Source: a phage. From it: a DNA stretch of 64,000 nt. Location of the stretch: assembly GCA_012813795.1 (NCBI GenBank), contig GCA_012813795.1_4087.1; one strand, written 5' to 3'. Shown in pieces: positions 1-60,056 of this stretch (its first letter is position 1; each line of letters begins with the position of its first letter). The translations under genes were made by a program, and so were the position numbers. The notes under the pieces were generated by a model. The model saw nothing but the letters and a program-made list of their open reading frames with translations, did not search any database and had not been told where the DNA came from.

Positions 1-1287
<1,287 letters not shown>

Positions 1288-1319
1288 CTATAGGGACACC
1301 ATACGGTATCCCTCTCCAG

Positions 1320-2805
<1,486 letters not shown>

Positions 2806-2900
2806 TTATCGGTGATGGATGTTACCATTCTGGATGCCATGAAAATCCATTTTTCGTGTTTTTCGTTAATAATTATAGCACATATAAATGTCTCTTCCCA

Positions 2901-2979
2901 TAATTGATAAATAATAGCATATAATCAAGGAAAGAAAATCACTTATTATGTGGGTGCTTTTAAATAATTGATAAATAAT
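2901..2979 (+). repeat. two exact copies of TAATTGATAAATAAT (2901-2915, 2965-2979) upstream of gene 3023
   Basis: read directly; contains the GATAAATAAT late-promoter-like core. Confidence 0.8.
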
Positions 2980-3022
2980 CTTAAGCAGGAGAGTCCTGCA
3001 CAAAATTGACAAGGAGATTTTT

Positions 3023-35917: not shown

Positions 35918-36406
35918 ATGAGTAAATGGGAAATTAAACCTGATGATGCACAGTATTTGAAAGAAATTAAAGAGTTTGAAGGTACTATTGCTTTCCAAAC
36001 TAAATTAGGTTATTTCAAGAATGGTAAATTCAGAGTTTATAAAGATAGCCTAGGACTAGATACCATTGGTTACGGTCACTTAGTACTAAAAGGTGAAAAT
36101 TTCAGTGCAGGGCTAACTGAAGCAGAAGCAGAAGCACTACTTCAAAAAGATTCCCTAAATGCATACAGAGAAGCTAACGAGATTTATGATCAATTCGGTA
36201 TGTCTGCACCAATTCAGGTACAACGTGTACTTTGGATGATGATATTCCAAATGGGTAAATCTCGTGTATTGAACTTTAAGAAAGCGATGGCAGCATTGGG
36301 TTGTGGTGATTATAAAACCGCTGGCAAAGAAATGCGTGATTCCGCTTGGTATCGTCAAACAACTTCTCGTGCTGAAAAAATGGCAAGGATTGTTGAATCC
36401 GTATAA
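35918..36406 (+). CDS. e: lysozyme (T4 e-like, GH24)
   Basis: EFEG...YKDSLGLDTIGYGHL...MIFQMGKSRV...SAWYRQTTSRAEKMA aligns to T4 lysozyme. Confidence 0.9.
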   Translation: MSKWEIKPDDAQYLKEIKEFEGTIAFQTKLGYFKNGKFRVYKDSLGLDTIGYGHLVLKGENFSAGLTEAEAEALLQKDSLNAYREANEIYDQFGMSAPIQVQRVLWMMIFQMGKSRVLNFKKAMAALGCGDYKTAGKEMRDSAWYRQTTSRAEKMARIVESV

Positions 36407-36419
36407 ATGAGGAAAGTCT

Positions 36420-36815
36420 ATGGCAATAGTTTTTAAAGGTTTCTCTACTCCTGTTGTGGGTAAAACACAAACTCTGTATGATGCTGAGTTGGTGAGACAG
36501 GATTTGATGAACCACTTCAATACAAAGAAAGGTGAAAGAGCATTTGATGCTGATTATGGTTTCATTGCTTGGGATTTGATTTTTGAACTTGATGGTTATA
36601 ATACAAAAAATCTTTTAGAAGCTGACGCTCGTAGAATTATTTCATTAGACCCACGTTTGAATTTAAAAAATCTAACAGTTAGTAATGTTGAATATGGTTA
36701 TCGTTTGGACATAATTTTAGAGTATGTAATGCTTGATAAATTAGAACAACTTACTATAGTATTCGATGCCAGAAGTAATAATAGGATGGCAACGTTTACA
36801 ACATCTAAATTATAA
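36420..36815 (+). CDS. 25: baseplate wedge protein gp25-like (gpW family)
   Basis: 131 aa; KGERAFDADYGF resembles T4 gp25 KGSRPFDPEFGC; followed by a terminator. Confidence 0.7.
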   Translation: MAIVFKGFSTPVVGKTQTLYDAELVRQDLMNHFNTKKGERAFDADYGFIAWDLIFELDGYNTKNLLEADARRIISLDPRLNLKNLTVSNVEYGYRLDIILEYVMLDKLEQLTIVFDARSNNRMATFTTSKL

Positions 36816-36914: not shown

Positions 36915-39900
36915 ATGTCACAACAAAAAAGACAATCTAATTTATACGCGGGGGAAGACTGGACCCAGGTATATGAAAGTTTCTATAAAATCAATCTGAC
37001 AGCTTATGACTTCGACACTATACGTCAAAGTATGATTGATTATTTGCGTCAAACATATCCTGATTCATTCAATGACTGGATTGAGAATGACCAGTTTATC
37101 TTCATTTTAGATACTATTGCAATGCTAGGACAAAACTTAGCGTTTCGTATGGATTTAAACACGCGTGAAAACTTCCTAGATACTGCTAGTCGTCGTGCAT
37201 CTGTGCTTAAATTAGCTAAAATGATCTCCTATTCACCTCGTCGTGCATATCCAGGGCGAGCAACAGCAAAACTAACTGAAATTAAAACGAACCAAGACGT
37301 TCGCAACAGCTATAACGAATCACTTAAAGATAAAATTATCCGTTGGAATGACCCAATGGACTCTAACTGGTATGAGAACTTTATTCTGGTAATGAATAGT
37401 GCATTTGTCAGTACTAACCAGTTTGGTAACCCAGTAAAACGTTTGGATATTAATGGTGTATCTCGTCATTTATATAGAATGAACACTTTACCTATGTCTG
37501 CACCTAATTTACCATTCACGGCTACTGTAAATGGTGAATCCATGACATTTGAGGTCGTAAACCCTGATATTAACGTTATTGGTGTTGATGAAAGACACCC
37601 TGAGCCACAAGAACAGAAATATATTGTGTATCAGAATGATGGTAATGGTTTTAGTTCACCTAATACCGGATTCTTTGTTTATTTTATTCAAGGAACATTG
37701 CAATATCAGGATTTCCAGTACGATGTTAGACAAGAAAACCGTATTCAGGATATTAACGTAGATAATATTAACGAAACTGACGTATGGGTACAGGAAATCA
37801 CAGAAGATGGCATAGTTCGCACTAAATGGACTAAGGTTCCATCAATGGAAAGTATTGCATATAACACAGTAACACGTCAACTTAAAACAATTTATGCTGT
37901 AACTACCCGTGACCGTGACCAAATCAGTATTAAGTTCCCTGATTCACGTAGTGGTGTTGTTCCGCGTGGAACATATCGTGTTTGGTATCGTGTAAGTAAT
38001 GGTGAAACATACAATATCAAAACTGCTGACATTCAAAACAAAAGTGTTAAGTACATTTACAGAACTAAATCACAATCTAACTATGAAAATAGTACATTAG
38101 ATATTAAATTTAGTTTACAATTTGAATCCGACCGTGCACAAAGTGCCGAAACCCTTGAACAAATAAAAGCTCGTGCACCACAAATGTATTATACTCAAAA
38201 CCGTTTTGTGAATGGTGAAGATTATAACATTGCACCATTGAGTCAAGGCAACGCAGTACTGAAATCTAAGGCGATTAACAGGATTTATAGTGGACAATCA
38301 AGATTTATTGATATAAATGACCCAACAGGTAAGTATCAGAACACCGATGTGTTTAGTGATGATGGTGCAATGTACAAAAATGTCACCAAATACAATAAAT
38401 CTGTAAATTTACCAAGTACTAAATCTAATTCTAGTATTGTTATTGATGATATTCAACCATTAATTGGTGAAAATGCTGTTATTCAGAAGTATCAAGCATA
38501 TCCACAGAATACAGTACGTGTTGAATTACAACAAAACTGGGTTCCATCATATAGTTCAAGCTATGCAACTAACACTTATGGTCGTATTGTTGGGGCAACT
38601 GGTACAATTTATGGTGATTATAAAGTTGGTACATTGATTAAATTTGGTAGTAGCTCAAATAATATCGTATGGGCTAGTATTGTTAATGTGTTACCAAACG
38701 GTTTTTATGTTCTAAGTACACCAATTTCTTCCTCAATGCAGATCCAAGAGTATATTAGTCCATATAGAACTCGTTTCAACACTGTTGAAGTTCAAAATAT
38801 AGCTGCAATGTTAGATAAGAAAACAAACTTCATTCTAATTTATGATATTGTATCCACTGCATGGGTTCCTTTGGAGATTACAACTACTAGTGATACTATA
38901 ACATACAATGGTTCGTTGGTGCAGGTGATGGTTAACATCCAATATACTGCTGAAACATGGGAATTTGATTCCAACGGTGTTGAATATGTCTTTGTTGGTG
39001 GTGAAAAAGTTCGTTTTTACTTTGTAAGCTCTAAGAAAATCACTGATATTAGTTCTGGTTCAGTGCAAAGTGATAAAATTGAGATTCTTTCATCGAACTC
39101 TACTAGTACTAGTAACGTAGGTCTAACCAATAACATTGATTTCCAGATTCTGGATACAATAAAACAAGAAAATGGTTATTTGGATGGTTCCAGAGTTGTA
39201 ATTACATCTGAAAGTATGGATAGTAATGGTATTCCATTAAATCCTAACCAATTTCAATCTATCGTCCCTGATTGGACTGGTGAAGATTCTAGAAAGTATG
39301 GTGGTATCTTGGTATTCCAACAAAATGAAGATTTCACTATTTCTTCATTGCCATTACCAAATTCATCCTTCACTATAATGGATTCAACATGGAATTATAC
39401 AATGGATCAGGCATTAGCTGAAACTAATGCGTATAAGAGACAGGAATTCATTCGTAATAATGAAATTCGTTCAACTACATTGAGTGAAGTATATAGTAAA
39501 GGTACGGGTTTTATTATTGCATTCCAATACGAAGGACAATATTACTTCATAGAACAAACCGTTGGTAATAACAATGACCGTTTGGGTGTTCTAATTCAGA
39601 ATATGACTGAAGTTACTGATCCAAGTGCTGCTACACCAGAAACTGCATTCTATCGTTGTATTAAAAACATGGGTACAAGTGTTGACACTAATAAAAAGCT
39701 TAATTATTATGGTTATAAGGATATTACATCTGAACTTACTATAAAAACTAATGCTAGAACGTCCATTAACTTTCACTGGAAACACTATGCACCAGATGAT
39801 AACCGAATCGACCCAAGCAGAACCAACTTAATTGATATGTATGTTTTAACAAACTCATATAAGACTGAAGTTGATATTTGGTTGAAGAATGGTGCTAAGG

Positions 39901-40379
39901 GTGATATGCCGAAACCACCAACCTCTGTTGAATTACAAGATATCTTCAAAGATGTTGAGAAGAAAACAGTAATTAGTGATAGTTTGATATGGCATAGTGC
40001 TGAATACTTACCATTGTTTGGTAATAGTGCTGCACCGGATTATAAAGCTGATTTCAAAGTAGTGAAATTACCGAATAGTACAATGAGTGATGACGAAATT
40101 CGACAAAGTATAGTTTCATTAACTAACCAGTACTTTGCAGTTGAGAACTGGGATTTTGGAGAAAGCTTTTATTATACTGATTTGTGTACATACCTTCATA
40201 CACAACTTGGTAGACATATTAGTACTGTCGTAATTGTAGCTCAAAATCCTAATTCTAAGTTTGGTTCATTGTTCGAGATACCTTCTAGACCTGACCAAAT
40301 ATTCATTAGTACTGCAACAGTTGATAACGTACAAATCGTTAACTCTCTTGCGAAAAGTAATATTAATATTGGTTTTTAA
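36915..40379 (+). CDS. 6: baseplate wedge protein, gp6 / baseplate J-like, enlarged (1154 aa)
   Basis: N-terminal region resembles T4 gp6; position after gp25. Confidence 0.65.
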   Translation: MSQQKRQSNLYAGEDWTQVYESFYKINLTAYDFDTIRQSMIDYLRQTYPDSFNDWIENDQFIFILDTIAMLGQNLAFRMDLNTRENFLDTASRRASVLKLAKMISYSPRRAYPGRATAKLTEIKTNQDVRNSYNESLKDKIIRWNDPMDSNWYENFILVMNSAFVSTNQFGNPVKRLDINGVSRHLYRMNTLPMSAPNLPFTATVNGESMTFEVVNPDINVIGVDERHPEPQEQKYIVYQNDGNGFSSPNTGFFVYFIQGTLQYQDFQYDVRQENRIQDINVDNINETDVWVQEITEDGIVRTKWTKVPSMESIAYNTVTRQLKTIYAVTTRDRDQISIKFPDSRSGVVPRGTYRVWYRVSNGETYNIKTADIQNKSVKYIYRTKSQSNYENSTLDIKFSLQFESDRAQSAETLEQIKARAPQMYYTQNRFVNGEDYNIAPLSQGNAVLKSKAINRIYSGQSRFIDINDPTGKYQNTDVFSDDGAMYKNVTKYNKSVNLPSTKSNSSIVIDDIQPLIGENAVIQKYQAYPQNTVRVELQQNWVPSYSSSYATNTYGRIVGATGTIYGDYKVGTLIKFGSSSNNIVWASIVNVLPNGFYVLSTPISSSMQIQEYISPYRTRFNTVEVQNIAAMLDKKTNFILIYDIVSTAWVPLEITTTSDTITYNGSLVQVMVNIQYTAETWEFDSNGVEYVFVGGEKVRFYFVSSKKITDISSGSVQSDKIEILSSNSTSTSNVGLTNNIDFQILDTIKQENGYLDGSRVVITSESMDSNGIPLNPNQFQSIVPDWTGEDSRKYGGILVFQQNEDFTISSLPLPNSSFTIMDSTWNYTMDQALAETNAYKRQEFIRNNEIRSTTLSEVYSKGTGFIIAFQYEGQYYFIEQTVGNNNDRLGVLIQNMTEVTDPSAATPETAFYRCIKNMGTSVDTNKKLNYYGYKDITSELTIKTNARTSINFHWKHYAPDDNRIDPSRTNLIDMYVLTNSYKTEVDIWLKNGAKGDMPKPPTSVELQDIFKDVEKKTVISDSLIWHSAEYLPLFGNSAAPDYKADFKVVKLPNSTMSDDEIRQSIVSLTNQYFAVENWDFGESFYYTDLCTYLHTQLGRHISTVVIVAQNPNSKFGSLFEIPSRPDQIFISTATVDNVQIVNSLAKSNINIGF

Positions 40380-40386
40380 TAAAATC

Positions 40387-40413
40387 GTGGCGGCCTTCGG
40401 GTCGCCTTTTTTA
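40387..40413 (+). terminator. terminator after the gp6-like gene (UUCG tetraloop)
   Basis: GGCGGCC-ttcg-GGTCGCC followed by TTTTTT. Confidence 0.7.
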
Positions 40414-40416
40414 TAG

Positions 40417-40426
40417 CATAAATAAA
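40417..40426 (+). promoter_or_regulatory. late-promoter-like CATAAATAAA upstream of the giant gene
   Basis: about 35 nt upstream of the ATG at 40461. Confidence 0.3.
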
Positions 40427-40460
40427 TCAAATGAATGAACGAATTTATGGAGTCCTATAC

Positions 40461-43400
40461 ATGACTAATAATTTTAAGTTTCTACCAACTAAAACGGCAG
40501 AAGCAGTACAACAGAAGCTTTTCATTAAAAGATTACCTGAATGGATGCAAGGCTTAGAAGACATTCAAAAGGTTAGTGATGATGTAATTCAACAATGGTT
40601 CAATCCAGCGGATAATGAAATCGTTGATGGATATATTGGTGATATGGGTTCTCCTGCTGCATCTGCTAAGATTTTCCTTGACGAATCAACCGTTGAACGT
40701 CAGCTATATCAATTATCAACAGCATATGTGTCTCGTAATGATGACACAAGCATTCGTTCGCTTCAATTTTATGATGATTTGGTTGGCTACATGGAACACT
40801 ATGGCACGTTAACTTCAAACGAGAGCCGTCTATTTTCTGGTAAGTTCTATTCTTGGACACCACCAATTAACCCAAACAAAATGACCAACTATAGTTCTTA
40901 TTTGTGGGATAGTAAAAATAGTTTTGGTATCACATCACCTGACTTTATTGTTATGGAACGTGGTGCTGATAACGGTAACACTTGGTCACTACAGAACTTT
41001 TGGTATACTATTGGACAAACCCTAGAAGATGGTACAGTACTAACTGCTGACATGACGCAGGATACTCGTTTTATTCGTGCACAAGCACCAATCATCGAAT
41101 ATAATAAAAACATCGAATTAATCAACTACGGAACAAATTTCCGTGGTATTGTTGACCTATTCTCTGATACAGTTAAACCAGAAGATATCGTTCAAAAGGA
41201 CGTTAACGATGGTATTCGTATCGATGGTATCATTCCACAAGATGGTATGCGTATTCTATTCACCAGTATCGGTAACGTTGGTGAAAACAACCGCATTTAT
41301 AAAGTTTTTATAAAGAAAATGCAAGATGGTTCTCGTACCTATGGTTTGGCACTAGATCCTGACGAGGAATCAGAAGAACGCCCAAGTGGTGAACCCCATA
41401 ACGGTGATGTAATTTTGGTGCGTGATGGTAATGTATATAAAAATACATCCATGTACTGGAATGGTGTTGATTGGGTTAGAGCACAAACCAAATCTGGTAT
41501 CAACGTGTTCCCACAATTCCAATTGTATGACCGTGATGGTTTCAAATTAAACGACACTACTATGTATCCATCAAGTAATTTCGTTGGATCATCACTATTT
41601 GGTTTCAAAATTAACTATAATTATGGCACTGATAAAGTATACGGTTATAATATTGAATTAGGTAATTATAATTACTACATGTACGAAAACTTTCTTCAAA
41701 GTGTTCGTTATACATATGATCATTTGGGTGTTGAAACAGAAATTTCTGGATTATATTACTATAATGTAGTTGGTAAAGATAATGAACTTCACCTTAAGAC
41801 CGATTGGGTTCGCTCAAAGGAAGATTCAAAACAATTTGTTAAACAAACACCACAAATCGAACATACTGATATGTATCGTGTATTCAATACTGTATTTGAA
41901 ATGGAAAACTTCAAAACTCCATTAGAAGGTATGTATGCATATGTCATTGAAGTTGATCGTACCTATCAATATTACAAAGAAGAACGTCAAACCTATATGG
42001 ATTGGCATGTAATTAGTGGTGAAGGTATTCAAAGTGAACGTTTCAATCGCACATTTGAATTAGCCCAGAAAATTATTGATGGTAAGAGTACTGAAATCAT
42101 TGAAATTCAAGTTGATGGTGTGGATGTAACCGATTATACACGTCATGTATATAATAACAAGGTTCAAAGCATCACTTTAGGGGAAGACGTTACTCTTAAA
42201 GATGAATCAGTAATTCAAATTAGAACATATAGCAGTACGGAAGTACCAAATAAAGAGTTGGGTGCATATGAAATCCCAATTAACTTACAAAATAACCCAT
42301 ACAACGATAATATTCTTTATATCAACCAAAGTAATTTTACATTACATTTTAAAGATATCATTCAAAAGAATATTACCAGTGGTTCAGTTGATGATTTCAA
42401 TGACTACGAAGAGCGTTTGTCTAAAGGTTTAGTAGATAACTCTGTAGGTACTAAGATTATCCAAAACGAAGCATCTATGCTACCGTTAATGGCACATTCT
42501 GCAAATGAAGACATTGACCTATTTGAATCTGTATTGTTTATGCAATCAGAGTACTTTCGTTTTGTAAACAAGTTCAATACACAAATGATTCGTTTGTATA
42601 ATGAGAACCCAGCAAACTTCTTAGCTAATAATGCTTCTAATATTGTTGATGAAATTCTAACAATTATTAATATGGGTCATGATAATACATTCCCATTCTA
42701 TTATGACAACGTGGCAAGTACTTCTGGTTTCATTCGTGCTTTTGTACCACCAACTCCACAGTTCTTAGGTATTTTAAAAGCTCACGTTCCAGAAAAAGCA
42801 ACATTTTTGAATGCTGGTAGTAAGCAAAGCTGCTATAACATCAGCCATACTGGTGCAATCACCAAAGCATACCGTGTAATTAACGGTGTTGATAAAATGG
42901 ATGACGTTATATATGAATTAGAAAATCGAATCTTCAATAGTATTGATGTTATTTTCAAAGATGAAGATTACCAACCTAAGCTAGATGCTTCTGACCTTTT
43001 CCCTACTCCGTATTTTAGAGATACAGAGTATAATGATGAAGAGAAGAAGAACTTACTACTACGTGGTTACATTAACTTCATCGCAACCAATGGTATCAGT
43101 AACAGTTCGCATGATTATGATCCAAATAACTGGATGACTTGGAATTATACTGGAACTTATTACATTGTTAATGGTCAACAAACACAAATACCAGCACGTG
43201 GTTCATGGCGAGCAATCTACACTGACCAATTTGGTACATATCGCCCAGCAACCCATCCGTGGGAAATGTTTGGATTCTCCCAACGTCCGGTTTGGTGGAA
43301 CCAAGAGTACGAACCAACAGCAGTTCAAGTTGGTGAACGCGACAGTGATGTTGTTTATGTATATGAGGCATTGGTTCTCAACGAACAAGGTAACATGGTC

Positions 43401-46400
43401 CCTAGTGGGTTGTGGGATGTTGGTAATGAGAAAGGTGATAGCTCAACTGGAACTATCTTATTTGGTGCACGTAAAGGCCAATATGACAAGTATAAACGTT
43501 TTGGTACACAACCATTCAAGATCACCAAAACAGGCAAGCAGACTGCTTCTGGTGTTGATATTTGCGTTATTGAGTACATTGCACCTGAAGTATTAGGTCT
43601 TGTTTATGGTAGTTTGAATCATCGTGCTGAACCTTGGACCTATGGTGACATGGGTGACATGGAATTCACATACATGAACACCTCAATGTTCGCATATGAT
43701 GAATTAATGTTGTTATTCAAAGCTAAACCTGCACAATTCACCAACTATTTCTGGAATACTCGAAATAATACATTAAAAACTGTATCTGGTAACGAACCAC
43801 AGTTTTTATATGGTGATACTCGTTTACGTTTGAACTTTAACAGTGATACAATAGTACATGGTGAGAATAGCACTCGTGTTATTGGTTATCAAATGATTGT
43901 TAGTAACTATTTGATGTATCAAAACAAAAACATCACTACTAAGTACGGTGAAGTTGTTCGTTCTTCTCATATTAATGTTGGTCATAAACTAGGTGGATTC
44001 ACTAAAGCTGACCAATTAACATTTACGTCAGAAGCAACTGGTCTAATTTCACAAGAAAACCAATCTATCGGGTTAGTTCGTTCTAATAATATTAGAAATG
44101 AGCAAATGAGTGCAATTAAAATTACTTGGACTGGTAGTGCTTACCAAATTGATGGTTATGATTTAGTTTCTGCAACATTCAATTATAAATTGCCTGTTAA
44201 AAACGGTCATAAAGTAACTTTGAAAGTTGATAATCGTAATGTTGTTCATTATAATGAGTGGAAAAATGATGCATCAATCCCTTACGGAACTTTGATGAAT
44301 ACATTCCAAGAAGTTTACACATTTATTTGTGGTTATGGTGAGTATCTCAAACAACATGGTTGGATTTTTGAAGAAGTTGATGAATCTGGTATCCAACAGG
44401 ACTGGAATACAATTGCAAAAGACTTTTTAATCTGGAGTCAACAACAATTGAGTACTGGTGAATTCATTTCATGTACTCCATCTGCAATTAAAGCCAAATT
44501 TGGTACAGATTTTGGTTCAGTACAGTCAATTACACAAAATAGTGGTGGTGTTTGGTCACTATTAGATGATTCAAACCAAGGTATCCGTCAATTTGAGATT
44601 GAAACATCTCGTATTGGTAATATATTCACGGTGAGAACTACTGAAGAATCAAATAAACGCATGGCACTTATTCGTTTAAGTATCAGTTCATATGAACATG
44701 CTGTTATTTTTGATGATCAGACTATTTTCGGTGACTATATCTACGAACCAACCTATGGTGCAGTTCAAGAATTGATTAAATTGTATGGATATATCACTGG
44801 TTCATGGTCTGGTCGCTTACAAGCTCCTGGATTTATCATCCTAGAAGCTGGAACATTACCATCATTTGAAACATTGGTATCAAATTTCCAACAGTATTAT
44901 GATAATGAAACTCCAGTTAGTGATGTTCAATTGAATGAACTATCAAATCACTTAATTGGTTATCAGTCTCGCGATTACTTACAACGTATGATCACCAACG
45001 AGCCTGGTAGAATTGATTTCTATAAAGGTTTCATCCACGATAAAGGTACTAACCAAGTACTAGAAAAAGTACTACGTGTATCTAAATCATATAATACTGA
45101 TGAGTATAAAGCATTACAAGAATGGGCATTCCGAGTTGGTTCTTATGGTAACATTGATGGGGTTAAAAATCTTCAATTTAAACTAATTAATAATGAGTTT
45201 AAACAACAACCACAAATGATTTCGTTTGACCGCTATGCTGATAAGGTAGAGTCAGAGAATGAGATCGTATATTATGGTGAAATTGGTGAAGATTCACGCT
45301 GGATTAGTCGTCCTAAAGGTAAATTCTCATTACCTATGCGTAGTGGAAGAAGTGAGAACATCCAATTACCTAATATTGGCCCAGTAACCTTAGATGAAAT
45401 TGATTATACCACATTGAATTATGAAACGGCTAATCAAGATCGCATTAGTTACACGAATAACTTTGGCAAAATACCAACATCTGTTTGGATGTTCCAAGAT
45501 ATTAATAACGAATGGAATATATATGATTTGGTAGACACTGGTATTACAATGGTTTCCATTACACCAATAGAGAATAGCGACCCATATGCTGAGCAATATT
45601 GTAAAGTACTATTGTCTGATGACATCCCACTAATGGATGGTGATTATTACTATTTCGTTGATGAAACAAACTTTATGCCTGACGCACTACGTGAAGAAGG
45701 TCAATATTACACTTCTGGACTAAATCCAAAAGTTATGGTTGTGCCATTTGACACTTCTATCACTATTGACTTCTCAACTGTAGAATCAGCACCACGTTTG
45801 TATCGTTATGTTAGTAGATTCAGCACTCAACAAGAACGTGATGATTATATTGCTAAAAAATACAGTTACAGTGCACCTGAAAGTACTTTGTTTGACCGTC
45901 CTACTACGTATGATGAAAGAACAAACATCACTGCATTGTATTTGAATGTGTTTGACCCAATCAATGGTGTTATTCCTGGTGTAGCAATGCAAGATGTTGA
46001 TTTCATCTCCCCTGTTGATCCAGCACAATATAGCAGTAATGGTGAACTATTACAAGCATGGGGTGCTGAAAAGGTAGGTAAGGTATGGTGGAACACTAGT
46101 ACTGCATTCTATCTGGATTATACCCGTCCAATCTTTGATGAGGATGGAAACGTTGATGTAAAAGCAACTAATGAATATAAGCGTTATAATTGGGGTAAAT
46201 TATTACCACACAGTGTTATTGATGTTCTAGAATGGGTTAGTTCACCAGTAGAACCATACAACTGGGAAAAATATTGTGCAGAACAAGCCAATAAAAATAA
46301 AAACAACACCATGTATCTCCCAAGTGGGGTTGCGATGGATGATAACTATAGTTCATCTATGGAATATGATCCAATCACCGATACATATGTAGTTCGTTAT

Positions 46401-49400
46401 TATTTCTGGGTTCGTAATACAATTTATGTTCCACCAATGACTACTCGTAGTAAGTCTTGTACTGATATTGCACGTATTATTCAAGATCCAACACAATTGA
46501 ATGTTCCTTGGTTTGCACCTATTAACGAAAATAGTTTCATTCTAAGTAATATGCAATTTGAAGTTAATGATGATACAAGCATTTTGACAATTTCATATAG
46601 AAATGACAATATTGAAGTCCTGAAGCATGACCAATATCAACTTTGTAAAGAAGGTGATAGTTATGACTTTAACCCAGATATTTGGAATTCTCTATGGAAC
46701 TCACTAATTGGTCAAGAAACTACTTCAACTGGTGTTGTAAATGAAATAGTTTATCCTAAAGTTGAAACTGGTTTGGGTTCTAATAAAACTTGGTTCCAGA
46801 ATGTTATTGAAGCTCGTCGTGCGTTTGTTGAGAGTGCTAATAACTTTTACCGTTCACATAACATCACAACTAACAGTGTTGTTATGAATGATGTCTTTAA
46901 TGTTAAAACATTAAAAATGAACCCGAATGATATTACATTCCGTGTTCTATCATTTAACAATGAATTGGTAATTGCACCAGAAGACAACCGCTTCAAAGAG
47001 AATGATGCAGTATTTGTAAGTTCCATTGGAACATTACCAGCACCATTATCTTCAAGTTCTGTATATTTTGTTCACATTGATCCAAATGGATACATTCAAT
47101 TGATGAACAGTCCAAGCACAGTTGGTAGTACTGTCACAATCACTCTAGAAAATAGAGGCGAAGGTCAACACAAGATGATTAAACAAGCTGACTTCATTGA
47201 ATCACTTGGTACATCGTTGGATATGACACAGTACTGGAATCTAGCTGATTGGTACGATACTGGATACGATAGTAACACTGAATATACACAAGAAGTTAGT
47301 TTAGATGACGCAAACACTAAAAATTACCAAATTGGTGATATTATCCGTGTAACTGATAGTGATGGCGTTTGGACATTATACATCAAGACTGCATCTCGCA
47401 ATAATGTATACTGGAGAGCTATTGGACGTGAGAATAGTACTGTTGAATTGAATTCAATGTTATATTCTAGTTACAATGTTTATAATGATGATGGTTCTTT
47501 GAATTCTCATGAGGTTAACGTTCGTAATGCGTTAGCGTTGTTGAAAAATTCATTCGATTTATATCAAAGTAATATTGTATTTGATATGGTTAAGTACGTG
47601 CACACTGAACAAAGTGTTGTTGATTGGGTATTCAAAACCTCCTATATCTATATCGTAGGTTTGGAGCAATCACTAGTACAGAACTACTCAAATGACAACT
47701 TGATTAATCAAATTGTTGAGTACTTCGAGGAAGTTAAACCATACAGAACCAAAATCCGTTCTCAAATCGAACAGAAAACTTCTGATGATGATTTGATTAA
47801 TGGTATTAGTAATGACCTTGACCCAGATGGCTATATTTTAGTTGATGGTGTGTGGGTTAAGACTGAAAAAGACATTTGGGATTTAGAATATGCACAATTC
47901 AATGATGTAACTCAACGTTGGGAAAAGATTGGTTCACTACCAAGTGACTTTATCACACCTAATAGACGATTCCAAGAAATAGACGTTATTATGCATTATG
48001 ATAATATTCAATGTGAACAGTATGATAGTAATTATACAATTGATGAGTTGAAATCAACCAATAGTAAGTATCAATCCAACGAGGCTGATGTAGGTAATAA
48101 TTATGAATTACAGAGATATGTTTATACATTCCCTGAATATGATAATAATACCTTAATTTCACAAATTGGTATTGAAATGACTACCAAATATTCAGATTTG
48201 GATATTAGTAATGGTGTTATTAAAGGAATTGATGCATGGTATAAAGCACATTCAACTGATATCGCATCAACTGACCAATTTACTACTGATTTGGAGCAGG
48301 TAACTGCTGATACAAACAATAGTAATATTTTAGAAGATGTTAAAAAATATATTCAATATAATACATTAGCAACTCGTGTGAAAATGTTTAATAATATATC
48401 TGATGATATGGTTTCTAATGAGATTGGTTGTCCGTTTAAGGGTACAAACTATAATGATAATCCTAATACTCGCCTCCCATTCGGGTTTAGTGCAAGTAGT
48501 GATTATAACTATGGTTATTTTGAGATTAGTATTGAACTATATGAAAAATATGTCGATATGATCAAGAAAAATCACCCAGAGTTTACAAACGAAGACCAAA
48601 TTCGTAACATTCTTGAAATAGAATATGGTGTTTATTGCTACAAGTATGATACCACATTAAATGACCGTTATTATTCTGATACCGTTCATGTTTTATCTGC
48701 TATGCGACAAACATTTAATAAGAATATTCTAGATCATTATTATGTTGCTAGAGAAATCTTAAGTAATCGTTCAGTTGAGAAGTATGCTTTTGTTATGATG
48801 CCAAGAAAGTATGTGTATGTTGTGAATGCGGCGGGTGAATATCTACCGATTCCTGAAAGTTACAGCATATCTGATTTCATGGAAGACTTGTTCATAACAA
48901 CCGGAGAATCAGTTGTATTGGCTGAAATTGATTTAAATGATTTACCACAAGACCAGAATAATCCTATGTATTCTGCATACATTGAAGTACTGGAAAGTAT
49001 TAATACCGCGAAATATTTCAATGATATGAACGCATTCGATAACTTGGCATTGGAATCACAAACCAAGTCCATTAAATGGGAAGTTAAAGATAGTGAGATT
49101 GATCCTTATATCATCGACATTTCTGAACTAAACCCATCAGGAAGAACAATGGCACAATTGCGTTTCACTGTTGATGGTTATGGTTTCGATGAAGTTGCTC
49201 AAGAGCAATTAAAAGACACGAGTAGATTCCAAATTGAGGGTATGATCGTACAGAACCCTTACAATATGTCAGAAGCAATTGTAAGTATTCCATCATATGA
49301 TATTGTCATCGAGAATATGGGTAAAGATGTGTTTAAAGATTCAGAAAAATACTTCTTCCCAATTTCAGAAATTAAAACAATTACTGAAATCAAGGTTCAT

Positions 49401-50438
49401 GATGAAGGATTGAAAAATGGTGATAAGGTTGTGATTTTCACACCAGATGGTGAAGATTATGTACGATTCCAAGATGGTGAATGGGTAACTATACTAAGTG
49501 CTAGTAAAATCCAAACCTCCAAAAAACCAAAACTGTACACTGTGCGTGTATTGGGTAACGGAAACGTTGAGTTGGTTGATGGTAACGGTGTTGCATTGAT
49601 GTTTGATAGTGTAACTAAGCGTGAAAGTAATGAGCGTTTTTATACATTATCAATGAACTTAGTTAGAATCCGCACTTTCCAAGACCCTGAGTTTGATGAC
49701 AATGGCCTTAAACTATATGAAAATAATCGTCATTATAGTATACATGCATTGAACTATGAAGTATTCTATGACGAAACATTATATGGTGGTAAATTCAATG
49801 ATGGTATCACATCTGATGAGATTGATTTGTGGTTAGTTTCCAATGAGATTTTTGAAGTTGATGGTATTACAATTGATAATGGTTATAATCAACCAATCAC
49901 TGGTAAAGGTGTTCTAGGTGAACTAGTACGAGCTAAAATGACTGATGGTATTGAAATCACTGTATTTGAATACGATGTTGATGTTATTCAACCAGTACTA
50001 AGTTATGATCGCGTGTGGCAGTATGCACAACCAGTGGTCAATAACACGTTCATCAAAGAGGTAGGATGTAATGTTATTAACATTACAACTGTTGAAGATG
50101 AGGCAATCACTTATGTTGCTAAACCTCGTTCAATAAGCCCATATATCATTACTGATTCAGTACTGTCAGGTGCTGCGGCACAGAATGATGATATTATTGT
50201 GGTTGGATATGAGAAGGTTCAGGTAAGAAATACTGATCGTCTATTACGTGGTGTCATGTATAGTGCGGAGCATAATTTCACAAAAGGAACTTCTTATAGC
50301 TTCAATGGATTGAACTTAGGAAGCATTGATAAGTTTACTCAATATCAAAACTTCTATCCACCAATTCCATTAGAGACATTCAGAAATGGATTGTCAATTA
50401 CTGGAACCGATATCGAAAAACTTTTGAATATTCAATAA
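40461..50438 (+). CDS. giant virion structural protein (about 3325 aa) at the gp7 position
   Basis: single uninterrupted frame; GGAG RBS before the ATG at 40461 (first in-frame ATG at 40431 lacks an RBS); terminators on both sides. Confidence 0.8.
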   Translation: MTNNFKFLPTKTAEAVQQKLFIKRLPEWMQGLEDIQKVSDDVIQQWFNPADNEIVDGYIGDMGSPAASAKIFLDESTVERQLYQLSTAYVSRNDDTSIRSLQFYDDLVGYMEHYGTLTSNESRLFSGKFYSWTPPINPNKMTNYSSYLWDSKNSFGITSPDFIVMERGADNGNTWSLQNFWYTIGQTLEDGTVLTADMTQDTRFIRAQAPIIEYNKNIELINYGTNFRGIVDLFSDTVKPEDIVQKDVNDGIRIDGIIPQDGMRILFTSIGNVGENNRIYKVFIKKMQDGSRTYGLALDPDEESEERPSGEPHNGDVILVRDGNVYKNTSMYWNGVDWVRAQTKSGINVFPQFQLYDRDGFKLNDTTMYPSSNFVGSSLFGFKINYNYGTDKVYGYNIELGNYNYYMYENFLQSVRYTYDHLGVETEISGLYYYNVVGKDNELHLKTDWVRSKEDSKQFVKQTPQIEHTDMYRVFNTVFEMENFKTPLEGMYAYVIEVDRTYQYYKEERQTYMDWHVISGEGIQSERFNRTFELAQKIIDGKSTEIIEIQVDGVDVTDYTRHVYNNKVQSITLGEDVTLKDESVIQIRTYSSTEVPNKELGAYEIPINLQNNPYNDNILYINQSNFTLHFKDIIQKNITSGSVDDFNDYEERLSKGLVDNSVGTKIIQNEASMLPLMAHSANEDIDLFESVLFMQSEYFRFVNKFNTQMIRLYNENPANFLANNASNIVDEILTIINMGHDNTFPFYYDNVASTSGFIRAFVPPTPQFLGILKAHVPEKATFLNAGSKQSCYNISHTGAITKAYRVINGVDKMDDVIYELENRIFNSIDVIFKDEDYQPKLDASDLFPTPYFRDTEYNDEEKKNLLLRGYINFIATNGISNSSHDYDPNNWMTWNYTGTYYIVNGQQTQIPARGSWRAIYTDQFGTYRPATHPWEMFGFSQRPVWWNQEYEPTAVQVGERDSDVVYVYEALVLNEQGNMVPSGLWDVGNEKGDSSTGTILFGARKGQYDKYKRFGTQPFKITKTGKQTASGVDICVIEYIAPEVLGLVYGSLNHRAEPWTYGDMGDMEFTYMNTSMFAYDELMLLFKAKPAQFTNYFWNTRNNTLKTVSGNEPQFLYGDTRLRLNFNSDTIVHGENSTRVIGYQMIVSNYLMYQNKNITTKYGEVVRSSHINVGHKLGGFTKADQLTFTSEATGLISQENQSIGLVRSNNIRNEQMSAIKITWTGSAYQIDGYDLVSATFNYKLPVKNGHKVTLKVDNRNVVHYNEWKNDASIPYGTLMNTFQEVYTFICGYGEYLKQHGWIFEEVDESGIQQDWNTIAKDFLIWSQQQLSTGEFISCTPSAIKAKFGTDFGSVQSITQNSGGVWSLLDDSNQGIRQFEIETSRIGNIFTVRTTEESNKRMALIRLSISSYEHAVIFDDQTIFGDYIYEPTYGAVQELIKLYGYITGSWSGRLQAPGFIILEAGTLPSFETLVSNFQQYYDNETPVSDVQLNELSNHLIGYQSRDYLQRMITNEPGRIDFYKGFIHDKGTNQVLEKVLRVSKSYNTDEYKALQEWAFRVGSYGNIDGVKNLQFKLINNEFKQQPQMISFDRYADKVESENEIVYYGEIGEDSRWISRPKGKFSLPMRSGRSENIQLPNIGPVTLDEIDYTTLNYETANQDRISYTNNFGKIPTSVWMFQDINNEWNIYDLVDTGITMVSITPIENSDPYAEQYCKVLLSDDIPLMDGDYYYFVDETNFMPDALREEGQYYTSGLNPKVMVVPFDTSITIDFSTVESAPRLYRYVSRFSTQQERDDYIAKKYSYSAPESTLFDRPTTYDERTNITALYLNVFDPINGVIPGVAMQDVDFISPVDPAQYSSNGELLQAWGAEKVGKVWWNTSTAFYLDYTRPIFDEDGNVDVKATNEYKRYNWGKLLPHSVIDVLEWVSSPVEPYNWEKYCAEQANKNKNNTMYLPSGVAMDDNYSSSMEYDPITDTYVVRYYFWVRNTIYVPPMTTRSKSCTDIARIIQDPTQLNVPWFAPINENSFILSNMQFEVNDDTSILTISYRNDNIEVLKHDQYQLCKEGDSYDFNPDIWNSLWNSLIGQETTSTGVVNEIVYPKVETGLGSNKTWFQNVIEARRAFVESANNFYRSHNITTNSVVMNDVFNVKTLKMNPNDITFRVLSFNNELVIAPEDNRFKENDAVFVSSIGTLPAPLSSSSVYFVHIDPNGYIQLMNSPSTVGSTVTITLENRGEGQHKMIKQADFIESLGTSLDMTQYWNLADWYDTGYDSNTEYTQEVSLDDANTKNYQIGDIIRVTDSDGVWTLYIKTASRNNVYWRAIGRENSTVELNSMLYSSYNVYNDDGSLNSHEVNVRNALALLKNSFDLYQSNIVFDMVKYVHTEQSVVDWVFKTSYIYIVGLEQSLVQNYSNDNLINQIVEYFEEVKPYRTKIRSQIEQKTSDDDLINGISNDLDPDGYILVDGVWVKTEKDIWDLEYAQFNDVTQRWEKIGSLPSDFITPNRRFQEIDVIMHYDNIQCEQYDSNYTIDELKSTNSKYQSNEADVGNNYELQRYVYTFPEYDNNTLISQIGIEMTTKYSDLDISNGVIKGIDAWYKAHSTDIASTDQFTTDLEQVTADTNNSNILEDVKKYIQYNTLATRVKMFNNISDDMVSNEIGCPFKGTNYNDNPNTRLPFGFSASSDYNYGYFEISIELYEKYVDMIKKNHPEFTNEDQIRNILEIEYGVYCYKYDTTLNDRYYSDTVHVLSAMRQTFNKNILDHYYVAREILSNRSVEKYAFVMMPRKYVYVVNAAGEYLPIPESYSISDFMEDLFITTGESVVLAEIDLNDLPQDQNNPMYSAYIEVLESINTAKYFNDMNAFDNLALESQTKSIKWEVKDSEIDPYIIDISELNPSGRTMAQLRFTVDGYGFDEVAQEQLKDTSRFQIEGMIVQNPYNMSEAIVSIPSYDIVIENMGKDVFKDSEKYFFPISEIKTITEIKVHDEGLKNGDKVVIFTPDGEDYVRFQDGEWVTILSASKIQTSKKPKLYTVRVLGNGNVELVDGNGVALMFDSVTKRESNERFYTLSMNLVRIRTFQDPEFDDNGLKLYENNRHYSIHALNYEVFYDETLYGGKFNDGITSDEIDLWLVSNEIFEVDGITIDNGYNQPITGKGVLGELVRAKMTDGIEITVFEYDVDVIQPVLSYDRVWQYAQPVVNNTFIKEVGCNVINITTVEDEAITYVAKPRSISPYIITDSVLSGAAAQNDDIIVVGYEKVQVRNTDRLLRGVMYSAEHNFTKGTSYSFNGLNLGSIDKFTQYQNFYPPIPLETFRNGLSITGTDIEKLLNIQ

Positions 50439-50439
50439 C

Positions 50440-50475
50440 AAAAAAGGAGAGCCAATGGCTCTCCTTTTCTTTTTC
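50440..50475. terminator. bidirectional terminator between the giant gene and clpA
   Basis: AAAAA-GGAGAGCC-aat-GGCTCTCC-TTTTCTTTTTCTT. Confidence 0.75.
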
Positions 50476-52761
50476 TTACACTACAGATGGGGTTTTAACT
50501 TGACGCTTTGGTTTGATAGCCAATTTGCCGTTAATTACATCAAATGTTACGTTTCCACCATTTACCAGAGAACCACACAGCATTTCTTTAGCCAGAGGAA
50601 CACGGATATTTTGTTCAATGGTACGTTTCATTGGACGTGCACCCATTCCAGGCTGAACACCATTTGCTTCTAACCATTCACGGGCCGCTTTAGTAATAGT
50701 TACTTTCACGCCACGTTCTTTGATTTGTTCATTTAGACCAGCCATGAACTTATCGATAACACTTTGGATAGCTTCACTAGATAGCTCATTGAACTTCACG
50801 ATACTATCGATACGGTTTAGGAATTCAGGTGGTAGGAAAGCTTTCACTGCTTTCTCTTGTGCAGTTTCACCACCACTTAAACCCAGACTGCGTTTGTTTG
50901 CATCTGCTGCACCTAGGTTGGTAGTCATAATAACTGTTACGTTGTTAAAGTAAACAGTTTTACCTTGAGAACCAGTTAGATGACCTTCATCCAGAACCTG
51001 TAGGAAGGTTAGCAGTACTTTAGGGTGAGCTTTCTCAATTTCGTCCAGAAGTAGGACAGCATTTGGGAATTGCTCAATCTTATCCAACAGTAGACCATTA
51101 CCAGTGTCATGACCAACATAACCTGGAGGTGAACCAATTAGTTTTGCAACGGTATGTTCTTGTGAAAATTCAGACATATCGAAGCGAATCAGTTCAGACC
51201 CCATTGCATCTGCTAGTGCTTTGGTAATTTCAGTTTTACCAGTACCAGATGGACCGACAAACATGAATGCACCTTGAACACTTGCTTTCTCACGCAGACC
51301 TGCACGGGCAACCATTACGTTATCTACCAATTTCTCAACTGCTTCTTCTTGACCGAATACACGGCTACGAAGTGCTGCTGGTAGTGACTTCATGCGTTCA
51401 GTTTCAGTACATGCCACTACGTTGATATCCAAGTTTGCAATTCCAGAAACAACTTCTTGAATTGTGCGTAGTGAAATTACGTTATCAGAATCATCACGTG
51501 AACGTTTCTTAGCTGCTGCTGCATCCATCAGGTCGATTGCTTTGTCTGGGAAGTGCTTGTTCTTCAGGAACTTATCACTCAAAGACACAATCGCATCCAT
51601 TGCTTCAGCACTGAAAGTTACGTTATGGAATTTCTCATAAGTACCTTGTAGACCATTTACAATCGCACGAGTTTCTTCAATTGTTGGCTCAACTACGTCA
51701 ATTTTCATGAAACGACGAGTTAGTGCACTATCTTTCTCGATATTTTTACGGTATTCATCGTAAGTAGTTGCACCGATTACACGAATCTCACCACGAGATA
51801 GTGCTGGTTTCAACATATTACTCATGTCCATTGAGCCGTTGCTTGCAGAACCTGCACCAACCATGATATGGATTTCATCGATGAACACGATTGTATTTTC
51901 ACGCTTCTTCAGTTCTTTGAGAAGATTATCAATACGCTCTTCGAATTCACCACGGTACTTAGTTCCAGCAGTTAGTGCACCAACGTTGAGAGACAAAATC
52001 TCAATGTTTTGTAGATGTTCTGGTACATTACCATCAACGATTGCTTGTGCTAAACCATCAACAATCTGAGTTTTACCAACACCAGCTTCACCAGTAAGAA
52101 TAGCATTCTTTTTAGTTTTACGTGCTAATGTTTCAATCAGTGCGTCCAGTTCTTTTTGACGCCCAATCATTGGGTCCAGTTTGCCATCTTTAGCCAACTG
52201 TGTTAGGTTGGTCGTGTAATCTTCAATTGATTTCTGTTTTGATGCAGGTTGTTGTTGAGCCACCTTTTTCTCCCCAGTAGGTTCATCAGCGATGCTTTGT
52301 AGGTTAATTTCAGAATCAAGAGATTCTACATATTTCTGAAGAGTACGGGCCGCTTCAGTGCGAGTTACACCCTCTTCCAACAATGCTGCTTCTAATGCAG
52401 TGTTTGGGAATGACAAACATTCAAACAGTACAAAGAATGCATCAATTGAGAAATCGTCACGTTTGAGTTGTTCGATGACAGATTTCTTAGATAGTTCTTG
52501 CATTACACGATTGACGATTAGTGTAGTGCGATTAACTTCTTCCCCCATAGTGCTGCGTGGTGCGTGTGGAACATTGGTATTTTTCAGATATTCAATCAAG
52601 CGATCACGCACTTTCGTTGCGTCAACGTTCATTGTCCCAAATACATCAATAATGCTATCCACTGTCAGCACTGTAGCACTGATGTGATCGATTGTCAAGA
52701 AAGTATGACCCATAGAGGTTGCAAGGTCGTCGCTGCTTTTGAATAGCTGTGTTAAATTCAT
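50476..52761 (-). CDS. clpA: ClpA-type AAA+ unfoldase (Clp N-domain plus two AAA modules)
   Basis: Walker A GEAGVGKT and GPSGTGKTE; Walker B IVFIDEIH and LLLDEIEKAH; LTAGTKYRGEFEER; GSPPGYVGH; IGL-like loop SLGL; GGAGAG RBS. Confidence 0.9.
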   Translation of the reverse strand: MNLTQLFKSSDDLATSMGHTFLTIDHISATVLTVDSIIDVFGTMNVDATKVRDRLIEYLKNTNVPHAPRSTMGEEVNRTTLIVNRVMQELSKKSVIEQLKRDDFSIDAFFVLFECLSFPNTALEAALLEEGVTRTEAARTLQKYVESLDSEINLQSIADEPTGEKKVAQQQPASKQKSIEDYTTNLTQLAKDGKLDPMIGRQKELDALIETLARKTKKNAILTGEAGVGKTQIVDGLAQAIVDGNVPEHLQNIEILSLNVGALTAGTKYRGEFEERIDNLLKELKKRENTIVFIDEIHIMVGAGSASNGSMDMSNMLKPALSRGEIRVIGATTYDEYRKNIEKDSALTRRFMKIDVVEPTIEETRAIVNGLQGTYEKFHNVTFSAEAMDAIVSLSDKFLKNKHFPDKAIDLMDAAAAKKRSRDDSDNVISLRTIQEVVSGIANLDINVVACTETERMKSLPAALRSRVFGQEEAVEKLVDNVMVARAGLREKASVQGAFMFVGPSGTGKTEITKALADAMGSELIRFDMSEFSQEHTVAKLIGSPPGYVGHDTGNGLLLDKIEQFPNAVLLLDEIEKAHPKVLLTFLQVLDEGHLTGSQGKTVYFNNVTVIMTTNLGAADANKRSLGLSGGETAQEKAVKAFLPPEFLNRIDSIVKFNELSSEAIQSVIDKFMAGLNEQIKERGVKVTITKAAREWLEANGVQPGMGARPMKRTIEQNIRVPLAKEMLCGSLVNGGNVTFDVINGKLAIKPKRQVKTPSVV

Positions 52762-55715: not shown

Positions 55716-56180
55716 ATGAATGAGGCAGTAGGAGCAATATTTTTATCTAAAAGTACTGGTCATATGATGCTCAATCTTAGATCTGAAAGCAGTACCTATT
55801 CAAACAACTGGGCTTTTGTTGGTGGAAAACTCGAATACAACGAATCCCCTTTGCAAGCTTTACATCGTGAAATACGAGAAGAATTGGGAGATTCGTTACC
55901 TGATATAATTGATATTATACCCTTTGATGTATTTTGTACAAAGAATGGTAAGTTCAAATATTATTCTTTCGTTGTTGTTGTTGAAAATGAGTTTGTTCCT
56001 ATTCTCAATAAGGAAAGCTCTGGATATGCTTGGGTTAAAATTGGCTCATGGCCTAAACCACTACACCCTGGAGCTAAAAACACTTTATTAAATGTTAATT
56101 TGATGAAAGATTTTTATTCTTTGTGGGAAAGTATAAACGCTGGTACGCAATTTGTCAACAGCCTACCATATAGATATTAA
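55716..56180 (+). CDS. Nudix hydrolase
   Basis: Nudix box GGKLEYNESPLQALHREIREELG; AAGGAGG RBS. Confidence 0.85.
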   Translation: MNEAVGAIFLSKSTGHMMLNLRSESSTYSNNWAFVGGKLEYNESPLQALHREIREELGDSLPDIIDIIPFDVFCTKNGKFKYYSFVVVVENEFVPILNKESSGYAWVKIGSWPKPLHPGAKNTLLNVNLMKDFYSLWESINAGTQFVNSLPYRY

Positions 56181-57321: not shown

Positions 57322-57936
57322 TTACTGTAGTTGTACACGAACAGTATATTTTATTTGTAAAACACGATTCGCACTTTTCTCTACTGGGTGGAAAATAATA
57401 TGAGATAACGGCATACCATTATCACCATCAGTATATAAACCCAATTCATCAAATACGTAAGTACCATCCATATTAGTACTGGAACTTGTATTCTGATCAA
57501 CTGGTTCACCTAGACCTAAAGTGCAAATACAGACGATATCGGTATATGCTTGGCCTGGAATGTGAACAGTTGTGATGTTATTATACTGTGAATCAATACT
57601 ACTTGAGATTCTAGGGTTTATTTTCTTCAAATATGTTTGTGAATATAGACCACCAAATGAGGTTACACGTGGTTTTTTATATGTTACACGACCAGTACTT
57701 AATACAACAGTACCACCGTTACCAAAACGCATTTCTGATATTGACCCAACTGGGATACCGGAACTATCTTGGTTGTATGCTAGTGCGTTAGCAATTGCAG
57801 TACTCATGTTTTCTGGGTGAATTGCGTTCGATTTATCGAGTACAATTTTTTCATTCGCAGGATCAGTAACGTCAGTAATTAGTACATGACCCTTAACGAA
57901 CAGTTTTGGTTGTTCTGTTTCTAATTTCATTTCCAA
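57322..57936 (-). CDS. putative structural protein
   Basis: same operon; by position only. Confidence 0.45.
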   Translation of the reverse strand: MEMKLETEQPKLFVKGHVLITDVTDPANEKIVLDKSNAIHPENMSTAIANALAYNQDSSGIPVGSISEMRFGNGGTVVLSTGRVTYKKPRVTSFGGLYSQTYLKKINPRISSSIDSQYNNITTVHIPGQAYTDIVCICTLGLGEPVDQNTSSSTNMDGTYVFDELGLYTDGDNGMPLSHIIFHPVEKSANRVLQIKYTVRVQLQ

Positions 57937-59687: not shown

Positions 59688-60056
59688 ATGGCAGTTTTTT
59701 CTAACTTTGAAGGGACAATTTTACACAAACAATCTGGGGGTAAATATGTAGTAACAGTAGCTGGTGCATTCGTAGGAAAATATGAACAGCTTAAAGCAGC
59801 AGTAGTTGGTGCTAAAACTATTAGAACACATAACACTGCATGGGGTACAAACCAATATGCTAAAGCAGCAGGTACAAGAATTGTAATTCCTGGTGCTGGT
59901 GAAAATGGAACTGATCTCCACACTCATATAACACGAGCTACATACGTGGTCAACTCGGTATTTTGCATTGATATAGCAGACGAAATAAAAACTGCTTTCC
60001 CTGATGAGACTCCATTGTTAGCCGAATCCCCAATTACATACATTACACTTCCATAA
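59688..60056 (+). CDS. small fiber-associated protein sharing an N-terminal module with the next gene
   Basis: N-terminus MAVFSNFEGT matches MAVFSNLEGT of 60074..60976. Confidence 0.5.
   Translation: MAVFSNFEGTILHKQSGGKYVVTVAGAFVGKYEQLKAAVVGAKTIRTHNTAWGTNQYAKAAGTRIVIPGAGENGTDLHTHITRATYVVNSVFCIDIADEIKTAFPDETPLLAESPITYITLP

Follow-up and report, generated by a model that had tools for sequence, protein, structure and literature searches.

A giant virion structural protein in the gp7 position of an Asteriusvirus-like jumbo phage and its probable role as a baseplate-wedge scaffold

What kind of protein is specified by a single uninterrupted frame of about 10 kb that lies among the baseplate genes of a phage, at the place where phage T4 carries gene 7? 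The question is raised by a stretch of phage DNA of 64,000 nucleotides (NCBI GenBank assembly GCA_012813795.1, contig GCA_012813795.1_4087.1; the whole stretch is called the window), in which this frame occupies positions 40431-50438 of the + strand. A first-pass annotation, made from the letters of the sequence, had offered either a fusion of several wedge or fiber functions or a new giant structural protein. Here the frame, its product, its relatives and its neighbourhood were analyzed. The gene family is already known, and the copy in the window is closely related to a deposited gene of Escherichia phage A4. With moderate confidence we regard the product as a peripheral baseplate-wedge scaffold in the slot of gp7, having a conserved core of 2450 amino acids (aa) and a faster-evolving C-terminal part of 875 aa.

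The giant gene is 94.7% identical at the nucleotide (nt) level over its whole length to A4_580, annotated as 'structural protein' in Escherichia phage A4 (genus Asteriusvirus), and the genes of 121Q, PBECO4, phAPEC6 and their relatives show about 77.6% identity to its first 7.6 kb. The window belongs to an Asteriusvirus-like jumbo myophage. The protein matches PHROG 10938 'virion structural protein' with 5216.7 bits, residues 11-3332 of the long open reading frame (ORF) being aligned to profile positions 1-3324 of 3324. Full-length orthologues are found in 72 independently sequenced phage genomes, and the carriers include RaK2, K64-1, CBB and GAP32 as well as jumbo phages of Erwinia, Yersinia, Salmonella and Xanthomonas. 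The gene is the 'largest ORF' by which the CBB paper aligned the RaK2-like genomes (PMC5259590).

Published virion proteomics already covers the family. CBB_236, which adjoins the gp6-like wedge protein CBB_237, gave 21 peptides in virion mass spectrometry (PMC5259590), and phAPEC6 gp245, of 381.88 kDa, gave 17 virion peptides and 7.6% coverage, with 24.2% coverage for the adjoining gp244 'baseplate wedge' (PMC7247149). From the detection of these two orthologues the giant protein can be taken as a virion protein. The wording of the first-pass annotation is supported as to a giant structural protein and not supported as to its being new, since annotated orthologues exist in at least 72 phages and the mass spectrometric check which it proposed has in effect been made on CBB and phAPEC6. 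The literature searched assigns no function or virion position to the giant protein. Its peptide coverage amounts to between one third and three fifths of the value for the gp6-like protein (7.6 against 24.2% in phAPEC6, 7.7 against 12.5% in CBB), roughly as a 1:2 ratio of giant to gp6-like protein would give.

The frame runs through 3335 codons in the ORF list of the window and is uninterrupted, as had been noticed at first pass. At a G+C content of about 35% a random codon is a stop with a probability of about 0.075 (7.5%), and the chance of a stop-free run of this length, estimated from base composition, is about 1e-110. The likely product is slightly shorter than the frame. Reading of the sequence shows no Shine-Dalgarno element ahead of the first ATG (40431), and a GGAG at 40449-40452 (+) stands 8 nt before the second ATG (40461); the PHROG 10938 profile begins at residue 11 of the long ORF, which is ATG 40461, and the annotated start of the A4 orthologue is also the second ATG. 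Because these three indications agree, translation most likely starts at 40461, and positions 40431-40460 (+) are an in-frame extension of 10 codons which is probably not translated. The giant virion structural protein is accordingly encoded by 40461-50438 (+), 3325 aa plus stop, and residue numbers are counted from ATG 40461. The predicted product has a mass of 382.3 kDa and an isoelectric point of 4.6. No transmembrane segment is present in it (maximum 19-residue hydropathy 1.53), and neither tandem DNA repeats, nor dispersed ones longer than expected by chance, nor internal protein repeats were found in the gene or the protein.

The position of the gene was described at first pass as the gp7 position, following gp25 and an enlarged gp6-like gene, and this reading stands as a statement about gene order. 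A gp25-like sheath initiator of 131 aa (36420-36815, +; Pfam GPW_gp25 PF04965, E 3.9e-9) is followed by a gp6-like baseplate wedge protein of 1154 aa (36915-40379, +), which matches PHROG 10646 over its full length and PHROG 219 'baseplate wedge subunit' at E 2.6e-21. T4 gp6 has 660 aa, and T4 gp7 has 1032 aa, in agreement with the earlier figure of about 1000. The counterparts of the gp6-like protein in relatives carry precomputed Pfam DUF8360 matches, and its N-terminus looks by eye like a Baseplate-J-type helix pair; it is presumed to be the partner of the giant protein. Upstream of gp25 come the genes for a gp5-like hub/lysozyme protein and a free lysozyme. The same neighbourhood is found in A4 and RaK2, with hub, lysozyme, gp25 and gp6-like genes upstream and a ClpA-like gene downstream on the other strand (in RaK2, ORF070w adjoins ORF071w).

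The order of gp5-like hub, gp25, gp6-like and giant genes is also kept in all four distant relatives (24-29% identity) with readable context, and because of this the gp7 position is well supported. In these distant relatives a gp53-like gene of about 100 aa, where visible, precedes the hub/lysozyme gene, the gp6-like protein has 1044-1146 aa and Pfam DUF8360, and the first base of the giant gene lies at most 14 nt from the end of the gp6-like gene (the coordinates coincide in two relatives, and in one the genes overlap by 8 nt). The giant gene is followed there by a gene of about 200 aa and then by fibre genes with Collar or Peptidase_S74 domains. This directly following gene is a homologue of PHROG 11259 (L003 20760-21350; L014 23138-23746; L004 22937-23662), which in the window is a conserved protein of 204 aa at 57322-57936 (-), annotated in A4 as A4_574 'structural protein'; in the window and in RaK2 (ORF064) it is displaced by about 7 kb and inverted. 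Its product probably associates with the giant protein as a structural partner. The product was also considered as a gpI homologue; this idea found no support, the protein being beta-rich by eye and similar neither to gpI nor to the gp7 core.

The giant size is a feature of the whole family. A first homologue search found 171 proteins, and all 120 that were listed are 3100-5200 aa long, none being of the size of T4 gp7; more than 100 metagenome assemblies carry a homologue of similar length. A profile of residues 1385-1600 (216 residues), searched against 1.84 billion cluster representatives (clusters at 50% identity), matched 1202 clusters at E<=1e-3 and 738 at E<=1e-30. Among the 150 matches listed, nearly all are proteins of 2500-6281 aa in which the module lies about 1300-1900 residues from the N-terminus, and the few shorter ones look like fragments. 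Since the module matches so many clusters, and those listed are nearly all giants, the giant architecture would be old and very widespread in uncultured phages. A supposed natural split of the gene just before the conserved module (P0266) was rejected, as the break is a run of N in the scaffold. A run of N at about 2740-2763 of L011 makes a metagenomic homologue look like two genes of 896 and 2820 aa, so that apparent split versions in assemblies are not to be trusted unchecked.

Conservation was mapped with BLAST against the giant protein in 51 distant homologues of 24-29% identity. The conserved core is formed by residues 1-2450 in three blocks (1-460, 600-1700 and 1810-2450) with two less conserved gaps between them, and residues 2451-3325 gave no BLAST match in these 51 proteins, that is, outside the RaK2-like group. 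Within RaK2-like phages the C-terminal 879 aa are 39-57% identical whatever the host genus (E. coli, Klebsiella, Erwinia, Xanthomonas), and the comparison with PBECO4-type proteins gives about 56% identity for the C-terminal part against about 78% for the core. Because this part diverges faster than the core and yet keeps such identity across host genera, the pattern suggests that it is exposed and is not a classical host-range determinant. Distant relatives have insertions after residue ~150 and at ~1700-1810, and their C-terminal part is replaced by other sequence. Their variable parts carry FG-GAP repeats, carbohydrate-binding modules (CBM5/12) and once a T7 tail-fibre N-terminal domain. 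In two relatives (P0098, P0120) a CBM5/12 module sits in a loop just ahead of a conserved helical stretch, at about residue 1465 of the window protein, and given this insertion the loop must be solvent-exposed.

AlphaFold models were made for residues 1-1200 and 1201-2400. Both have a mean pLDDT (predicted local distance difference test) of 76 and consist of many small beta-rich and alpha/beta globular domains. The N-terminal module (residues 1-150; 40461-40910, +) is always the extreme N-terminus in the homologues and has an insertion hot spot after it by the BLAST maps; residues 1-87 are modelled with low confidence, with short helices at 10-44. It is followed by the conserved block A (residues 151-460; 40911-41840, +), which is mostly beta with pLDDT 80-92, and, after the first gap, by block B (residues 600-1700; 42258-45560, +) with mixed alpha/beta domains. 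Block C (residues 1810-2450; 45888-47810, +) is likewise delimited by the conservation map and the model, and ahead of it lies the hot spot at 1700-1810, where distant homologues have much larger inserts, with FG-GAP repeats in P0080 and P0113. The lineage-specific C-terminal part (residues 2451-3325, 875 aa; 47811-50435, +) is set apart by BLAST and the identity comparisons. It contains a degenerate motif '...VQVRNTDRLLRGVMYSAEH...' (50196-50300, +; found by regular expression and alignment), which many distant giants have as 'PGVIFIDGERIEY...LRRGTLGT..H..G' about 145-160 aa from their C-terminus. The sole Pfam match of this motif is weak and sub-threshold (Rcc01698_C, E 0.014), a family of gene-transfer-agent tail-tip proteins.

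Within block B a densely conserved stretch (residues 1413-1545; 44697-45095, +) holds 17 invariant residues, including E1412, H1413, Y1521, G1523, K1528 and G1529. It is modelled as a set of short helices, with helices at 1469-1537, and its pLDDT is only 30-50. On the model this stretch is a candidate for a partner-dependent docking module, and it fits a region ordered only in complex, for example in a helical core bundle such as the one described for XM1 (PMC10457771), in which a gp7-type protein joins two gp6 chains. We hold the latter hypothesis tentatively, with rather less than even confidence.

Kinship with gp7 of T4 and gpI of P2 was examined by several routes. The T4 gp7 Pfam domains PF21427, PF21428 and PF21456 gave no match in the giant protein, even with segments at E<=5, and Pfam gp7, Tail_P2_I and TssG gave none at E<=10 on 14 family members. 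The family profile gave 0 matches at E<=10 against all PDB sequences, T4 gp6 to gp12 included, and phmmer and hmmsearch of the whole protein, the conserved module and the C-terminal motif gave nothing meaningful against the same set. With hhalign the family reached a probability of 0.25% against T4 gp7. Sliding windows of 400 aa all stayed below 0.5% against a profile of the gp7 core made from eight Straboviridae sequences (T4 and seven others), the conserved module scoring 0.1-0.4%; the maximum against P2 gpI was 1.6%, and scores against T4 gp6 and the window's own gp6-like protein were background. The T4 gp7 core in tblastn retrieved 1476 phage records, and neither the 40 listed nor the organism names shown include a RaK2-like phage; a homologue search with this core gave only six close fragments. 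Foldseek of the 1-1200 model found nothing in the PDB (best E 0.17), and comparison of the models of residues 1-2400 with solved structures connected them neither to T4 gp7-gp12 nor to P2 gpI nor to another baseplate protein of solved structure.

Since the Pfam, PDB-profile, hhalign, tblastn and Foldseek searches are all null, membership of the giant protein in the gp7 family is not supported by sequence or by model. The segment-wise profile and structure comparison proposed at first pass has in this way been run, with hhalign windows and AlphaFold models of residues 1-2400, and returned no gp7-type match; the suggestion of a fusion of several wedge or fiber functions likewise finds no support in the profiles and models. 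No match to Pfam or NCBIfam was obtained with the whole protein or with five segments, in line with the earlier remark that no catalytic motif could be recognised.

What favours the wedge-scaffold reading is the conservation of the gene, the detection of orthologues in virions, gene order, the late promoter motif with the flanking terminators, and predicted architecture. The giant protein would fill the slot of gp7 (T4) or gpI (P2) directly after gp25 and gp6, at about 6 copies per virion, one per wedge, as peptide coverage suggests. One multi-domain chain would build the outer baseplate in place of the many separate proteins of T4. Residues 1-2450, with their many small beta-rich and alpha/beta domains, would form the scaffold, and the helical module 1413-1545 may lock onto a pair of gp6-like subunits by a contact resembling the core bundle. 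The C-terminal 875 residues and the two insertion hot spots would face outward and may carry fibre-docking or cell-surface-contact functions, because distant relatives have CBM5/12, FG-GAP and T7-fibre-type domains there. In its fullest form the proposal describes a design unlike any solved baseplate, with a single chain of about 380 kDa per wedge (up to 6281 aa in relatives) replacing the gp7-gp11 periphery, folds without solved counterparts and an internal helical anchor, in place of an N-terminal one, to an enlarged gp6 dimer; this full design we put forward tentatively, as possible and less likely than not.

Several points weigh against it. The copy number is drawn solely from peptide coverage, and the baseplate location is read from gene order. 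The low pLDDT at 1413-1545 can equally fit a flexible or a poorly modelled region. Three motifs of the same stretch which resemble gp7 are statistically insignificant (P 0.16-0.45).

These motifs are also the substance of an alternative reading, which takes the giant protein for a true, extremely diverged homologue of gp7/gpI whose helix-turn-helix and 'KGT' core lies at about 1460-1545, with accretions of about 1450 aa on the N-terminal and about 1800 aa on the C-terminal side. The conserved core of T4 gp7 is not N-terminal; it starts near residue 660 with the pattern 'NFEAFCEAYIQYLSD ... WEYLWSEIYKRNIYL ... FYSTKG'. A colinear look-alike is found in the giant family at 1468-1530, 'SFETLVSNFQQYYD ... 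NHLIGYQSRDYL ... FYKGFIHDKGT', in which Y1521, G1523, K1528 and G1529 are invariant in every alignment. The three elements 'NFEK..DF..YY', 'HLIGYQ.R.YL' and 'FY.GFI..KGT' are colinear with T4 gp7 663-739, and resemble P2 gpI as well; they lie within predicted helices, and the best hhalign path reproduces the pairing of 1468-1530 with gp7. They fall, moreover, in the densely conserved helical stretch that cannot be folded as a monomer, the gene position agrees, and T4 gp7 likewise has an extension of about 690 aa before its core. Against this, the P values and the hhalign path score are at chance level, the hhalign probabilities are below 2%, the 14 family members lack any Pfam gp7, Tail_P2_I or TssG match, and short motifs picked by eye are easily over-read. 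We consider such descent possible, at somewhat over a third.

Less probable, at about a quarter, is that the protein is a baseplate-attached adhesin or fibre-network protein outside the wedge core, binding the cell surface or anchoring side fibres, while a smaller protein such as that of PHROG 11259 completes the heterotrimer. The latter protein, however, is beta-rich by eye and unlike gpI or the gp7 core, and the tight coupling of the gp6-like and giant genes argues for a direct partnership of their products. The identity which the C-terminal 879 aa keep whether the host is E. coli, Klebsiella, Erwinia or Xanthomonas is not a host-range pattern. A fibrous, beta-helix or hypervariable receptor-binding architecture was also looked for, and the 2400 modelled residues are globular and multi-domain, without such repeats.

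Very large virion proteins of other phages are sometimes ejected enzymes, and the low copy number read from peptide coverage would suit a protein that acts like a tape measure, is internal or is ejected, such as a pilot protein or a virion enzyme, and lies in the tail module by chance. This is very improbable, as a tape measure should be a long, mainly helical chain, often with hydrophobic segments, whereas the giant protein is mixed beta/alpha and lacks long helices or coiled coils, transmembrane segments and any catalytic domain; a neighbouring protein of 716 aa would already fit the tail length, and even very distant relatives keep the synteny with gp6. An artefact of assembly or annotation by collapsed repeats or fused ORFs, which the first-pass annotation had allowed for, is excluded by the lack of repeats, the constant length (3310-3361 aa) shared by dozens of isolates and assemblies obtained independently, the full-length orthologues in the 72 phage genomes and the detection of a 381.9-kDa product by mass spectrometry in phAPEC6.

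The local signals around the giant gene are those reported at first pass, namely a late-promoter-like motif upstream and terminators on both sides. An intrinsic terminator with a 7-bp GC-rich stem and a T run follows the gp6-like gene (40389-40406, +). The ATAAATA at 40418-40424 (+), 43 nt before ATG 40461, resembles the T4 late promoter, of which it is the core; it occurs 21 times in the window on both strands, and 17 of the 21 sites are within 80 nt upstream of the start of an ORF of at least 100 aa. Because of this placement ATAAATA is read as the functional-looking late promoter motif of this phage, and the giant gene as a late gene with its own late promoter; in phage A4 a nearby gene is annotated as a gp55-like late sigma factor. 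A perfect 12-bp hairpin terminator (50442-50468, no strand assigned, as the scan reported the + strand only) separates the giant gene from the convergent ClpA-like gene.

That gene (50476-52761, -) encodes an AAA+ protein of 761 aa matching PHROG 4871 'ATP-dependent protease'. It has baseplate and tail genes on both sides, A4 and RaK2 (ORF069) carry it at the corresponding position, and its product might serve as a chaperone or unfoldase in the assembly of very large structural proteins. On the other side of the giant gene, the gp5-like hub has 887 aa (33220-35883, +) and a sub-threshold Peptidase_M23 match. The free lysozyme of 162 aa (35918-36406, +) matches positions 727-885 of the PHROG profile which it shares with the hub, and it has the appearance of a second copy, by duplication, of the C-terminal lysozyme domain of the hub. 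The virion structural protein of 716 aa (31070-33220, +) upstream of the hub would fit a tape measure by its length, 716 x 0.15 nm compared with a tail of about 109 nm in related phages (PMC13070987).

Further observations were made downstream. A NUDIX/MutT hydrolase gene (55716-56180, +) lies between the gp15/gp3-like tail completion gene and structural genes, as in RaK2 and A4. At 59688-60056 (+) the comparison with A4 (L001 34286-36078) shows a clean deletion of 1.79 kb inside the gene for a 'colanic acid-degrading protein', which has 723 aa in A4; a remnant ORF of 122 aa is left, matching the C-terminal end of PHROG 6117, and the deletion may mean loss of a depolymerase and a difference in host range. 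The gene annotated in A4 as 'long tail fiber proximal subunit' runs off the end of the window and contains, at 61664-62466 (+), segments of about 320-350 nt with a mutual identity of 79-83%, which indicate repeated modules in the fibre gene.

The giant gene takes up about 3% of a genome of about 350 kb and is kept at full length in a group of jumbo phages that is very large and for the most part uncultured. If its product is the gp7-slot scaffold, it would show how contractile-tail baseplates are scaled up by one growing chain and not by added subunits, and the attachment site of the branched fibre systems in RaK2-like therapeutic phages would be marked. For this window itself little is added, as the gene is so close to the deposited one and orthologues are already detected in virions; the presence of the gene will not surprise specialists of jumbo phages. 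The very large family does make the protein a reasonable target for cryo-electron microscopy; for phAPEC6, in which as in CBB tail 'hair' fibres are seen, the present tail map has a resolution of 25 Å.

Among known systems, T4 gp7 is likewise a large, multi-domain protein whose gene directly follows gp6 in the late baseplate operon; the giant protein is three times larger and shares no sequence or profile similarity with it, nor fold similarity in residues 1-2400. In P2 gpI, TssG of the type VI secretion system and XM1 gp17, the third wedge subunit is minimal, and a comparable element in the giant protein would lie about 1460 residues in. The gene order V-W-J-I-H of P2 is the same as spike, gp25, gp6, giant and fibre genes in the distant relatives. 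The peripheral baseplate proteins gp027 and gp087 of phiKZ (9xqd, 9xqs) belong to an unrelated lineage, are much smaller and score at background level. The N-terminal attachment modules of branched tailspikes and fibres (CBA120 TSP4 residues 1-250, T7 gp17 N-terminus) are among the closest known systems. Closest of all are the orthologues RaK2 ORF070w, CBB_236, phAPEC6 gp245, 121Q gp582 and A4_580, which have the same size and the same neighbours. The proteins of 121Q/PBECO4 type show about 73% aa identity to the giant protein, and from the PHROG 10938 orthologues it differs by ordinary sequence divergence only, together with an ORF call that is 10 codons longer owing to the upstream in-frame ATG.

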